Shown here: positions 20,644 to 49,541 of the stretch, one piece after another
Position numbering within the stretch: the first letter of the stretch is position 1
How the letters are laid out: each line of letters begins with the position of its first letter
NCBI GenBank assembly: GCA_045105515.1
Contig: JBGCDR010000051.1
Location: 1 to 64,000 of the forward strand
Length of the DNA stretch: 64,000 bases
Source of the DNA: Oligoflexales bacterium
GTDB taxonomy: Bacteria; Bdellovibrionota_B; Oligoflexia; Oligoflexales; Bog-1112
Direction of reading: 5' to 3'
Translations under genes and position numbers: made by a program
The notes under the pieces: model-generated
Database searches by the model: none
What the model was told of the DNA's origin: nothing
The model's input: the letters and a program-made list of their open reading frames with translations, nothing else

Positions 20644-21918
20644 ATGGCCATGGAGAATAGAAGAACGATGGATTATCGGCATGAAATTCCCAAGCGTGTG
20701 CGTGTCTTGATTCTAGGTGGTGGAATACATGGAGTAGGATTGCTTCATGATCTGGCAAGCCGGGGACTCAAAGATATTTTTCTATTAGAGAAAAATAGCC
20801 TGGCTCAAGGTACTAGCTCTAGGTCGACTAAGCTAATCCATGGAGGATTACGCTACCTTAAAAGAGCAAGTGATTATAGCCTAGTTTCTGAATCTTTGCG
20901 TGAACGCAAACTTTTATTGGATCTTGTTCCTGACTTGGTACATCCACTAGAACTAATTTTCCCAATATTAAATAAGGGGGGTGAAGGTTCCCTTATGGTT
21001 AAGATTGGCTTGAGTCTATATGATCGTTTGGCAGGTAAAGAAAAAGTAAATCCACATACAACTGTTCAGCTAGAAGAAGTATTAAAAAAAACACCCATTC
21101 TTAATCCAAGTGAGTTTAAAAAGTTTTATTCGTTTTGGGATGCACAAACCGATGACCTGGCTCTAGTAATGCGAGCGGCTAACTCAGCAGTCTCCCTTGG
21201 AGGGCGTATTTCTGAGCATTGTAGAGCCGTCAAAGTTTCAAAGTCTAAGGATGGATTTGATGTAGAAGTTCAAGAGGAAGGGTCTGAAATAAAGAAAATC
21301 AGTGCTCTTTACGTGGTCAATTGCCTGGGTCCTTGGGCAAACGATTTTTTGGAAAAAAGTTCAATAGAGCCGGCATTTTATGGTTTGAAAAACAAAGGTG
21401 TTCATTTGATATTGCCAGACAAAGGCCTAAAAGCAGGGCTCTTTCTGCAGTCTCCTGAAGACCGTAGGATTTTTTTCCTTCTTCCTTGGCTGGGTCATAC
21501 ATTGCTTGGAACCACTGAATCAGTTTTTGATGGTGATCCCGACCAGGTAGTAGCCCAAGATGAAGATATTGATTACCTCTTGAGCCGCTGTAATCGATAT
21601 TTGAACGAACCATTCAAGAAAAGTGAGATCGTATCAAGCTTTGCAGGCTTAAGGTGGCTTGCAATGGAAAAAAGTAAGACAATAAGTTCTACTTCGAGGG
21701 AATTTTCGCTCGGAGAGCAAGCTTCAGGCCGCGGCTTGCTAATCACCTTATATGGGGGAAAGCTCACAAGCTATCGTTCCCTGGCAGAAAAGATAGGTGA
21801 TAGAATCTCGTCTCATTTTGGAGAGTTCAGGCCAAGTCAGACTCATAAACAGGCATCTTGGATAAAAGCTGGCGAACATTCGTCGCCGCAAATCCTGGAA
21901 AGGTTCGTGCCAGGTTGA
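20644..21918 (+). CDS. glpD: FAD-dependent glycerol-3-phosphate dehydrogenase (short form)
   Basis: GGGIHG, GTSSRSTKLIHGGLRYL, GGKLTSYR motifs. Confidence 0.85.
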   Translation: MAMENRRTMDYRHEIPKRVRVLILGGGIHGVGLLHDLASRGLKDIFLLEKNSLAQGTSSRSTKLIHGGLRYLKRASDYSLVSESLRERKLLLDLVPDLVHPLELIFPILNKGGEGSLMVKIGLSLYDRLAGKEKVNPHTTVQLEEVLKKTPILNPSEFKKFYSFWDAQTDDLALVMRAANSAVSLGGRISEHCRAVKVSKSKDGFDVEVQEEGSEIKKISALYVVNCLGPWANDFLEKSSIEPAFYGLKNKGVHLILPDKGLKAGLFLQSPEDRRIFFLLPWLGHTLLGTTESVFDGDPDQVVAQDEDIDYLLSRCNRYLNEPFKKSEIVSSFAGLRWLAMEKSKTISSTSREFSLGEQASGRGLLITLYGGKLTSYRSLAEKIGDRISSHFGEFRPSQTHKQASWIKAGEHSSPQILERFVPG

Positions 21919-22066
21919 TAAATTAATAGTAATAAAAATTACTATAAAGAGACTATTTAATAGTGCTCTAATTCTAAAAAATATTAATATATTAAATGAT
22001 TATAATGCAAAATAAAAAAGCTATAAAAAAAATATTAAAATAAAAAGTAAAAGCTATAAAAATAAT

Positions 22067-22095
22067 TTGACTTATTGAATTTAATGGCATACATT
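22067..22095 (+). promoter_or_regulatory. Sigma70-type promoter with A-tract UP element
   Basis: TTGACT-17bp-TACATT, preceded by A-tracts and a duplicated AAAAGCTATAAAAA. Confidence 0.6.
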
Positions 22096-22100
22096 TCTTC

Positions 22101-22194
22101 GTGCAAGGCGAAGCCACACACCGAAGGATCACACAGCCTTGCAGCATCACACATCAGGACCGCAAGCAGGACCACAAAACCTCTTGTTATGCAC
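22101..22194 (+). ncRNA. Candidate small regulatory RNA
   Basis: Starts 6 nt after the -10 box and is GC-richer than its flanks. It has complementary ends (GTGCA/TGCAC), an internal TGCAAGGC/GCCTTGCA stem and three AGGA motifs. Confidence 0.45.
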
Positions 22195-22225
22195 TAGGTA
22201 TTTAGTATTTAGAGTGGGGGGTAAT

Positions 22226-22588
22226 TTAAAGGAAACTTTGGATTTTTTCCCAGGTCAATTCGGATTTTTCAATTTTTCCATCTGCAAATTTATCGATGTT
22301 TTCTTGATCAAAGCCAAAGTGTTCAAGTGTTGAACAAACTAGAATGGTTCCTTTGAATCCTAGGTCAACCCGGACAAACTCTAACAAGTTTAGAGAAACT
22401 ATTGTTTTGCCTTTTAACTTGTAATCAAAGATGATTAGGTCAGTTGAAGCAAGGGTTTCTGCCGATTCCTTTTCTTCCAATTTTCCTTCGCTTAAATAGT
22501 AGCGAGCATTAATATCTTTCCCAGAAAAAATGTCTTTGTATAAATTTAAAAAAAATGACTCATCGTCAAGTACTATCACATTTAGCAT
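22226..22588 (-). CDS. Single-domain response regulator (CheY-like)
   Basis: VIVLDDE, LIIFDY (phospho-Asp), conserved S/T and K. Confidence 0.85.
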   Translation of the reverse strand: MLNVIVLDDESFFLNLYKDIFSGKDINARYYLSEGKLEEKESAETLASTDLIIFDYKLKGKTIVSLNLLEFVRVDLGFKGTILVCSTLEHFGFDQENIDKFADGKIEKSELTWEKIQSFL

Positions 22589-22634
22589 CGTTATTCTCCT
22601 GTATATGCCTACCGATTTAGTCTCAAGTCGAGAG

Positions 22635-23195
22635 CTATTCGGTGTCTTTTTGATTCTTGAGCTTTACAAGCTTCAAGGCTTTGGTTACCTGATCCATCAC
22701 ATCAATATCAAGCTCTTCTAGGTCAGCTACTAAACTCATGAAATTTTCGAAATATTTAGTTTGTCTTCGACCTTTGCTGCAAATTTCAACAAAGCGCTTT
22801 CTTGTTTTGAGGTTGAGTCCATCACACGCCTGGAGAATAATGTTTTCCCAATTTTCGAGACCTTCCTTCAAATTTCCTTGATGATCGAATCTAGGATTTT
22901 CATCTAAAAGGTAAGCTACAAAATCAGTTATGGGTATGTCTCGAAGGTTTGCAAGGGACTGAAGATAACTAATGGCAGTAAGCAGTTTAGGTGTGGGTTT
23001 CGTGGCACCCCTTACTTCGTAGTATCTAGGTAGTCCTATGTTGAGATAATCGGCCATAGCTTGTGACACCGATGGAGAACTTAGATCGTTCGCTTGCTTG
23101 TATTCCATTTCATACTTTTTGATGTAGTGGCTCAGTAGCTGCTGTAGCTTAACCTTCTCGTGTTCACTTAAGGGTACTTTTTCTGGTAACTTCAT
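22635..23195 (-). CDS. Putative XRE-like helix-turn-helix regulator
   Basis: SQAMADYLNIGLPRYYEVRG resembles an HTH; a GGAG SD precedes ATG 23195 (TTG 23243 is an alternative start). Confidence 0.5.
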   Translation of the reverse strand: MKLPEKVPLSEHEKVKLQQLLSHYIKKYEMEYKQANDLSSPSVSQAMADYLNIGLPRYYEVRGATKPTPKLLTAISYLQSLANLRDIPITDFVAYLLDENPRFDHQGNLKEGLENWENIILQACDGLNLKTRKRFVEICSKGRRQTKYFENFMSLVADLEELDIDVMDQVTKALKLVKLKNQKDTE

Positions 23196-23583
23196 GCTAA
23201 CTCCTAATGGAGATGTAAAAAAATCAAAAATTTTTTGTGTCAAATCACATCAGGCGATCATTGGGCAATGATATTAGATGATTGTGCAATCGAAATCGTG
23301 AAAAAACACTATTTAAAAAGTGATAAAAGATAACATAAAGCTATTTCTGATCCAAGCTAATTGTAAAAGTAGGGCATAACATCCTATAATATAGGGAGAA
23401 TATAATTAATATTTTGTCTCTTTTTCTGCTTTTTCATGTTCCTTTGCTTCTAACAATAGCTATGCATCTTCTTTTTTCCTTGCAATCTGAAGCTTTGCTT
23501 CTTTATAAACACAACATAAATGAAAACATCAGGAGCAACTAAGCTTTGTGTAAGAATCTAATAAATATAGTTTTTGTGGGTAA

Positions 23584-48101: not shown

Positions 48102-49541
48102 GTGCAGATAACGAGAGAAAAGCATCAGACTAAGATTATTTGTTCTCTTGATAGCGTTGGCTTGAAGCCCGATTATGCCAAGGATTTTTCTGACCGCACC
48201 GATATCGCTGCTTTGCGGATTTTGTATGATCCAAGAAACACAAAAAAAATTTTGGAGTTCATACCTTTAGTTGACGAATTCAGATCCCCTGAGTTGAATA
48301 AAATCCCTATTATGATTGACGTTGGTTCATTTCCCCGAGCAAGCGTCGCAAACATAAAATTAAATGAAGATCTCCAGTATTCTCAGATCTTGAATATATC
48401 CAAGCTTGGCATGGGTGGAGATATTGAGATTAATACCGAGGACTGGCAGAGTCTATTTGCTAAGAATGAATCACTGTTTTTTGGCTTTGGCAGTATTGAA
48501 TGCCGGGTCTTGGAAATTGGTAAGGAGCAAGTAAAGGTCAAGGTCTTAAAAGGAGGAGGCTTAGTTGCAGGAACCGCTGTCCATGTGCCTGCAACTAGAA
48601 AAGCTCCTTCAATATTTGACCTAAGCTATATTGACATTAAACCCTTCCAAGAACTGGGGGTTGATTATGTGGTTCTACCGGGAGTAAATTCTGCTCGTGA
48701 AATTGCTGTGGTGAGAAAAAAGTTGGATAATGATCGCAGCAAATGCCCATGGCTCCTTATTAGAGTCGACCACCTAGATGTCTATGAAAAAGTAAATGAC
48801 CTCTTAGATGAAGCTGATGGTGTGCTTATATCAAGACGAGACTTAGCTCTGACCATGGAGGCTGCCACGGTCCCGATGGTTTGCAAAGAGGTTATCCGCG
48901 AATGCAACAAGAAGGCTAAGCTTGCAATCATTGCAAGTGATATCCTTGGTTCTCTTCAGTTCAATCCCACTCCGACGCGAGCTGAAGTTTCCGACATAGC
49001 TAATTCAGTTATGGATGGTACGGATGCGATTGTTCTTTCTGAAGAAGTCGCTCACGGGAAGCACCTTATGCGTGGTTTATCTTTATGTCGCAGTATTATT
49101 CTAGATGTGGAAGAACAACAAACTGAAGCCGATATAAATTGGAAAAAAGAAGAGTTAGCTATCAATAATGAATTAGATGCAGTAGCCTTCCATGCTTTTA
49201 AAACAGCTCAAAGAGTTAAGGCAAAGGCAATTGTTTGTCTTACTAAAGAGGGAAATACTGCTCTAAGGCTTGCGAGATTTCGTACCTCTGTACCGGTGAT
49301 CGCTGTTACCTTTAGCCAGGAGGTTAAACGTCGTTTGTCTCTGGTAAGAGGTGTGTATTCCATGGTCCTTGATATTGCGCCTCATTTGGATGAAGTGCTA
49401 CCGGTTGTGAATAAACATTTGAAACGAGAAGGTTGGTTGCGAAGTGGGGACAAGATTGTCTTTGTAACCGTAACTCTCTCATCTGTTGGGCGTGAAGCAA
49501 GCAATTTATTTACCATTCAGAGTGTAGATAGGTTAAAATAG
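48102..49541 (+). CDS. Pyruvate kinase-like protein with degenerate active site
   Basis: PTRAEVSDIAN..DGTDA and the C-domain (T..GNTA..LARFR) are retained; several catalytic motifs are altered. Confidence 0.85.
   Translation: MQITREKHQTKIICSLDSVGLKPDYAKDFSDRTDIAALRILYDPRNTKKILEFIPLVDEFRSPELNKIPIMIDVGSFPRASVANIKLNEDLQYSQILNISKLGMGGDIEINTEDWQSLFAKNESLFFGFGSIECRVLEIGKEQVKVKVLKGGGLVAGTAVHVPATRKAPSIFDLSYIDIKPFQELGVDYVVLPGVNSAREIAVVRKKLDNDRSKCPWLLIRVDHLDVYEKVNDLLDEADGVLISRRDLALTMEAATVPMVCKEVIRECNKKAKLAIIASDILGSLQFNPTPTRAEVSDIANSVMDGTDAIVLSEEVAHGKHLMRGLSLCRSIILDVEEQQTEADINWKKEELAINNELDAVAFHAFKTAQRVKAKAIVCLTKEGNTALRLARFRTSVPVIAVTFSQEVKRRLSLVRGVYSMVLDIAPHLDEVLPVVNKHLKREGWLRSGDKIVFVTVTLSSVGREASNLFTIQSVDRLK

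Follow-up and report, generated by a model that had tools for sequence, protein, structure and literature searches.

Results

The locus in the source genome

The window, i.e. the whole stretch of 64,000 nucleotides analysed here, belongs to contig C51 of the source genome (G000), a MAG of 6.3 Mb in 461 contigs that is 90.9% complete. The element described in this study sits within a 307-nt gap separating two convergent genes. One of them encodes a DAO-family FAD oxidoreductase (20644-21918, + strand; PF01266, E 1.8e-47), the other a 120-aa protein that belongs to no Pfam family (22226-22588, - strand). Together with a gene of 202 aa, the latter occupies 22226-23243 of the - strand. By eye, the N-terminus of the 120-aa protein (VLDDE...DLIIFDYKL) resembles the acidic pocket of a receiver domain; the protein has paralogues in its own genome and relatives in five of the 15 other genomes of the family.

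The GC content of 22101-22200 is 0.53, whereas 21919-22066 has 0.12 and the window as a whole 0.41; the four bases of 22101-22200 are unevenly represented (A 33, C 31, G 22 and T 14 per 100). Neither BLAST nor motif search revealed paralogues, i.e. the element is present as a single copy in the source genome. Contigs from three probable source runs carry an identical locus, and one other run contributed the flanking genes only. An initial annotation of this region had described a promoter, a GC-richer stretch with GTGCA and TGCAC at its ends, a stem and five repeat units. All of them are present, with the coordinates given below.

Promoter and upstream region

The predicted sigma70-type promoter (22067-22095, + strand) consists of the -35 hexamer TTGACT (22067-22072), a 17-nt spacer and the -10 hexamer TACATT (22090-22095), the hexamers scoring 9/12. 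Transcription is expected to start near 22101-22103, as predicted from the position of the -10 hexamer. Upstream lies an A/T-rich region in which AAAAGCTATAAAAA is present twice (22016-22029 and 22049-22062, + strand), a possible UP element or regulator site. The two copies are 33 nt apart and located just upstream of the -35 hexamer; this 14-mer occurs five times in the genome and only here beside TTGAC. The conserved box AAAAGCTAYAAAAA is a possible site for a regulator. Sigma54 promoters have a TTGC downstream element in their consensus; reading TGGCAT as part of such a promoter was rejected, since inspection of the sequence showed this element to be missing in both species compared below. 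A scan of 21700-22700 for intrinsic terminators gave no terminator-like site on the + strand, including the part from 22096 to 22700.

Hairpin, GGA units and tail of the predicted RNA

As delimited by the species comparison, the conserved transcribed core of the predicted non-coding RNA extends from 22101 to 22177 on the + strand. It opens with a 5'-terminal hairpin (22102-22143, + strand), in which TGCAAGGC (22102-22109) pairs with GCCTTGCA (22136-22143) to form an 8-bp stem closing a 26-nt loop with the first GGA. This stem is the core of both the minimum-energy and the centroid fold. The + strand folds with -24.5 kcal/mol (z = -0.94), an energy matched by 33 of 200 shuffles, and the - strand with z = +0.47.

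The five units, all on the + strand, are AAGCCACAC (22111-22119), AGGATCACAC (22125-22134), AGCATCACAC (22143-22152), AGGACCGCA (22156-22164) and AGGACCACA (22168-22176). They had been described as repeated AGGA/CACAC motifs. Five units are indeed there, but only three of them carry GGA, at 22126, 22157 and 22169, and three GGA per 100 nt is about the number expected from base composition. The units that display GGA have the form (C/A)AGGA(Y)CACA. The first, AAGGATCACAC (22124-22134, + strand), exposes its GGA (22126-22128) in the hairpin loop and corresponds to CAGGATCACAA in the sister species. The second and third, CAGGACCGCAAG and CAGGACCACAA (22155-22177, + strand; GGA at 22157-22159 and 22169-22171), form a 12-nt tandem of 1.9 copies, and both are kept in the sister species. 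As binding sites, the three GGA thus read GAAGGAUCACACA in the 26-nt loop, followed by UCAGGACCGCA and GCAGGACCACA, the GGA outside the loop being predicted as unpaired or as part of a stem that is not conserved. A single CsrA dimer can span two sites if these are at least 10 nt apart, and the 12-nt spacing of GGA exceeds this limit. At least three [AC]AGGA[CT]C together with at least five CACA within 80 nt are found at one locus in the 6.3-Mb genome; as the criterion was set after seeing the locus, this count describes the locus and is no statistical test.

Downstream of the core follows a poorly conserved tail (22178-22225, + strand; 21/48 positions identical to the sister species), which reaches up to the stop codon of the convergent gene for the 120-aa protein. 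The alignment score of the 3' tails of the two species was reached by 52 of 500 shuffles and is hence no better than that of shuffled sequence.

Conservation in a sister species

BLAST searches of 41 relatives and of the complete set of 16 family genomes returned a single real homologue, in a species of the same genus (G001, here referred to as the sister species), with 82% identity over 92 nt (E 7e-19). The orthologue is found at the same place, downstream of the orthologous gene for the DAO-family oxidoreductase. The two oxidoreductase proteins are identical at 371 of 416 positions. At four-fold degenerate sites identity drops to 51/152 (34%), which implies that neutral positions are saturated between the two species. 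The RNA core is identical at 38/43 positions in 22101-22143 and at 27/34 in 22144-22177 (79-88%), with conservation of all three GGA and of four of the five units. Upstream, the -35 and -10 hexamers are each identical at 6/6 positions and TGGCATACATT at 11/11, the spacer merely at 7/17; the promoter-proximal copy of AAAAGCTATAAAAA is retained as AAAAGCTACAAAAA. Perfect hexamers, a diverged spacer and a conserved block from the expected start onwards are together characteristic of a promoter in use that yields a functional transcript. Taken alone, the features of the locus are not beyond chance; conservation in a second species lifts them above it. The comparison indicates purifying selection on the promoter hexamers as well as on the transcribed core. 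With both conserved, there is good support for the proposal that a sigma70-type promoter drives a small RNA here.

Indels of 4 and 16 nt separate the two species within the conserved core; they break every reading frame and argue for a non-coding element. The initial annotation had named an open reading frame starting at TTG 22139 as the competing explanation of the region. This frame does not hold up: it is broken by the indels, and its GGA is read as Gly in the source genome and as part of AGG (Arg) in the sister species. At the predicted 5' end, a GTG frame of the source genome and an ATG frame of the sister species share the first seven residues only, MQGE(A/T)TH. The long open frames seen in the sister species result from the scarcity of U in its RNA, which makes stop codons rare.

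Concerning structure, seven pairs of the 8-bp stem are invariant between the species and one changes from G-C to G-U. Such a change is tolerated by the RNA of the + strand only, pointing to constraint at the RNA level on this strand. The covariation looked for in homologues was not found, since orthologues number two, which likewise leaves no statistics on the retention of GGA. The suggestion of two alternative folds was not borne out. It relied on pairing of GTGCA (22101-22105) with TGCAC (22190-22194), and this outer pairing has no counterpart in the sister species, where repeats take the place of the sequence after 22177.

These repeats expand the GGA array. In the sister species the core contains 14 GGA in about 200 nt, all preceded by CA or AA and spaced by 12-13 nt in 9 of 13 intervals. 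The expansion lies beyond the shared core and consists of a 24-nt unit in 5.7 copies (94% match) with two GGA per unit. This RNA folds no better than shuffles (z 0.05), its units can form 3-bp GCA/UGC stems only and the ensemble is mostly open. Both RNAs are poor in U, and apart from the 5' hairpin they are predicted to be mostly open.

A DNA-level explanation has to be considered here, namely an array of repeats that bind a protein, or a tandem repeat whose conservation beside a promoter-like A/T-rich sequence is fortuitous. Promoter-like sites are indeed no commoner at the locus than in shuffles (2 observed in 21700-22700, 3.1 +/- 1.7 in shuffles), and the intergenic DNA of this genome often contains tandem repeats. 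Yet perfect hexamers around a diverged spacer are specific to a working promoter, and the strand-asymmetric composition together with the G-U-compatible change in the stem points to an RNA from the + strand. We regard the DNA-level explanation as very unlikely. As judged by these comparisons, the locus very probably represents a real and conserved non-coding RNA gene with its own promoter.

Could the core merely be the 5' leader of a longer transcript antisense to the convergent 120-aa and 202-aa genes (22226-23243, - strand), controlling them by transcriptional interference or duplex formation? Such a transcript would agree with the lack of any detected + strand terminator between 22096 and 22700 and with the stop codon of the convergent gene lying merely about 45 nt past the conserved core. 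The sister species, however, keeps core and promoter intact, although its contig, up to its end, matches no more of the 120-aa protein than residues 77-120. Likewise, none of the seven loci inspected beside relatives of the 120-aa gene carries the element. Moreover, a mere leader needs neither 79-88% identity nor an expansion of repeats. An antisense transcript therefore appears highly improbable. Concerning the truncated match itself, the last 44 residues (77-120) are found at 1-190 of locus L002, on contig C402 of the sister species near its end, and the frame is closed 59 codons upstream, reflecting either a truncated gene or an assembly break.

Distribution of the element

A covariance model (R1), built on the two sequences and hence narrow, found the element in 2 of 95 genomes of the order and not in the other 93. 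BLAST did not find it in the 14 other genomes of the family. When the syntenic site downstream of oxidoreductase orthologues was inspected at 13 loci, only the source genome and the sister species carried the element. Among the genomes searched, the element is thus restricted, as far as sequence searches detect it, to one genus of uncultured Oligoflexales (Bdellovibrionota). Small RNAs diverge fast, so functional analogues without sequence similarity would escape such searches.

Several other matches were discarded. BLAST additionally gave a match inside a coding region of one relative (G010) and a 17-nt match in another (G002, E 0.06). With R1, matches at E <=1 were obtained in 25 genomes. 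Apart from the element in the source genome and the sister species, there were 24 other rows and one weak second row of the sister species; the 13 loci inspected among them were devoid of promoter, hairpin and units and were taken as chance. The single match of a pattern scan of metagenomes lay in a GC-rich coding region and was likewise attributed to chance. A pattern scan of a genome collection yielded 17 loci, one of them genuine (L063), with an array that is the same as at the locus of the sister species; the other 16 lay inside long open frames of unrelated taxa. A family-wide search for three spaced (C/A)AGGA gave 33 rows in 11 of 16 genomes. Inspection of 11 of these loci found only the array of the sister species comparable; nine of the others lay in long open frames, and L103 and L095, situated outside such frames, were unconvincing. 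Scans for GGA-dense intergenic DNA yield many unrelated repeats, and GGA density alone therefore fails to single out the locus. The Rfam search suggested by the initial annotation matched no family: there was no match at gathering scores in the window and none at E <=10, Csr/Rsm families included, on either copy of the element.

Two kinds of repeats in the source genome were noted in passing. A second intergenic GGA-repeat on contig C138 (about 48150-48370, - strand) consists of four 29-nt AUAGGAUAGGUCAGGACCACACAAGAAUC-like units and has CAGGACCACAC in common with the RNA gene. TTGACA-16-TATAAG lies ahead of these units, and a 7-bp hairpin and a T-run come after them; searches of the sister species and the other family genomes did not recover this repeat, and no promoter was called on the relevant strand. 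Unrelated to the RNA gene are dispersed intergenic tandem repeats with units of about 22-24 nt that contain CTCGGGATGAC, often beside a CCCTCGAC-type motif (C415:549-856, C108:15496-15669, C108:4724-4808, C286:64463-64584, C153:10972-11073 and C169:5530-5640).

CsrA, FliW and Hfq

A sponge for CsrA had been proposed for this RNA, with the presence of csrA as a check. The gene is present: the source genome encodes, on contig C191, one CsrA of 94 aa (PF02599, 75.1 bits, above the Pfam cut-off), and csrA was found in 13 of the 16 family genomes, including the sister species. The N-terminal segment MLVLTRK and the segment VHREEIY align with RsmE of 2jpp and also with E. coli-type CsrA. The best PDB match is 5dmb_D, with 78 residues aligned, the C-terminal extension included. 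Directly downstream of csrA lies fliW (PF02623, 147.5 bits). Moreover, the CsrA carries Asn at position 55, the residue named as key for FliW binding in one report (PMC13407953). By gene order and sequence, this CsrA is of the FliW-partnered type.

Candidate targets are found among flagellin mRNAs. One flagellin leader (contig C65, upstream of 25660, and locus L074 of the sister species) contains UUGAC-AGGAG-GUCAA, conserved in both species, which forms a 5-bp hairpin with GGA in the loop over the ribosome-binding site. Judged from its sequence, this leader is a textbook-like candidate CsrA site. A second pair of flagellin genes keeps CACGGAAUGGAG in both species. The genus thus probably uses CsrA on flagellin mRNAs.

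Hfq (PF17209) was found in none of the 16 family genomes; among 14 control genomes five gave a match. This finding bears on the possibility that the RNA acts in trans by base pairing. Its CA-rich segments (CCACACACCG, AUCACACA and GGACCAC) would then be seeds that pair with U/G-rich sites of mRNAs, GGA would be incidental or part of the seeds, and CsrA would perhaps be a helper only, as reported for SR1 in B. subtilis. Conservation does extend over the whole 77-nt core, beyond the GGA motifs alone, and many small RNAs share the layout of a 5' hairpin with an unstructured region behind it. A role of CsrA in the pairing of small RNAs with mRNAs is described as well (PMC6546359). The absence of Hfq from the search results of all 16 genomes speaks against base pairing, as does the multiplication of a 24-nt unit 5.7 times in the sister species, which is typical of protein decoys and unusual for seeds. 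The longest perfect complementarity in the RNA's own genome is 13 nt, at chance level (E 5.5), though short seeds could escape this search. Altogether, we consider a base-pairing regulator rather unlikely, if worth keeping in mind.

Discussion

In this study, we describe a predicted non-coding RNA with GGA-containing units in a FliW-bearing lineage. As a working interpretation, we propose that it is a decoy of CsrA, a plausible assignment and the best single reading of the sequence data, though we hold it to be somewhat short of probable. According to this proposal, a sigma70-type promoter with an A/T-rich upstream region would start the RNA near 22101. The RNA would open with a stable 8-bp hairpin, followed by a U-poor, A/C-rich and mostly unstructured stretch displaying the GGA units. 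These (C/A)AGGA(Y)CACA units would be decoy sites for CsrA, the GGA-binding translational repressor, so that the RNA, when made, would titrate CsrA off mRNA leaders such as that of flagellin. Hereby an RNA input would be added to the protein antagonist FliW encoded beside csrA.

What is published on CsrA binding allows the sites to be compared. CsrA recognises GGA, often with ACA upstream, in weak hairpins, with the SELEX consensus RUACARGGAUGU (PMC7652899). For C. jejuni, whose CsrA is of the FliW type, the bound motif is (C/A)A(A/T)GGA, the optimum site spacing being 18 nt (PMC4894983).

Several observations favour the decoy: the conservation of GGA in a (C/A)A context, the unstructured display and the expansion in the sister species, along with a CsrA whose RNA-binding face is intact and the failure to find Hfq. 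The 14 GGA of the sister species, mostly 12 nt apart, are as expected under selection for more binding capacity. Other observations argue against it. The copy in the window has only three GGA, approximately the compositional expectation. Few GGA lie in short hexaloop hairpins, most being predicted as single-stranded or in a large loop. The gap between ACA/CAC and GGA is 3 nt, as compared to 1 nt in the SELEX consensus, and the fit is therefore partial. CA-rich spacers are conserved as much as GGA, something a pure sponge does not need. Neither a + strand terminator nor an Rfam match was found. Finally, the CsrA is of the FliW type, and fliW and Csr sponge RNAs are reported to be anti-correlated, FliW-type lineages being described as lacking such RNAs (PMC7652899, PMC4894983, PMC13407953). 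Of the original sponge proposal, the presence of csrA, the conserved GGA and an orthologue with 14 GGA stand in its favour; several features of the known families are missing.

Alternatively, the partner might be a different RNA-binding protein, with the RNA as its decoy or scaffold; such a protein would recognise the AGGA-YCACA unit or CACA tracts. The repeated unit does exceed GGA, its CACA part is conserved and the published CsrA consensus sequences are matched imperfectly. Against this, there is no candidate protein, and CsrA is the only known global GGA-binding protein that was searched for and found. A different protein partner hence strikes us as hardly likely.

CsrA is among the most widespread post-transcriptional regulators. 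Two controls of its activity, which rarely co-occur, are set apart in three reports: sponge RNAs in Gammaproteobacteria and the protein FliW elsewhere (PMC7652899, PMC4894983, PMC13407953). If the CsrA decoy is real, a GGA-repeat RNA in FliW-bearing Bdellovibrionota, a predatory lineage, blurs this division. We tentatively put forward, with less confidence than the decoy function itself, that sponge RNA and FliW coexist in the control of CsrA in this genus, and that the RNA is the first dedicated CsrA-titrating small RNA outside Gammaproteobacteria, having arisen independently by tandem duplication of GGA units. Searches of open-access papers and preprints turned up no CsrA-titrating small RNA described for Bdellovibrionota or FliW-type lineages, mRNA leaders such as flaA aside, and nothing on small-RNA biology of Bdellovibrio/Oligoflexia in connection with CsrA. 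If true, the two sister species show the origin of a sponge in progress, with three sites in one and 14 in the other, and they offer RNAs of about 80 to 240 nt as compact objects on which the origin of sponge RNAs can be studied. If the RNA were a base-pairing regulator instead, it would still represent a new small RNA family, in a bacterial family where Hfq was not found. The finding rests on two genomes of uncultured bacteria, and the claim should be cheap to test in vitro.

Comparison with known systems

The closest counterparts are CsrB/CsrC and RsmX/RsmY/RsmZ of Gammaproteobacteria. As with these, the locus would encode a stand-alone, promoter-driven non-coding RNA with repeated (C/A)AGGA units, copy number varies across species through duplication of units (here 3 and 14 GGA), and the genome encodes a CsrA with conserved RNA-binding segments. 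Unlike them, the RNA has no match to a sequence or structure family in Rfam and no intrinsic terminator was found, its GGA lie mostly outside short hairpin loops, and its host is a FliW-bearing lineage of Bdellovibrionota. Upstream boxes of the TGTAAG...CTTACA type belong to Csr/Rsm small RNA genes; none was visible on reading 21919-22066.

The leader of C. jejuni flaA, a titrator of CsrA in the CsrA-FliW system, offers a second parallel. As would hold for the RNA proposed here, this leader provides an RNA input to a FliW-type CsrA and has few GGA sites in an A-rich context (PMC4894983). The flaA leader is part of a coding mRNA and presents its sites in two hexaloop hairpins (PMC4894983), whereas the RNA proposed here would be the product of a separate non-coding gene with mostly unstructured sites. 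It is short, has few GGA sites and includes conserved single-stranded segments that are able, in principle, to pair with mRNAs.
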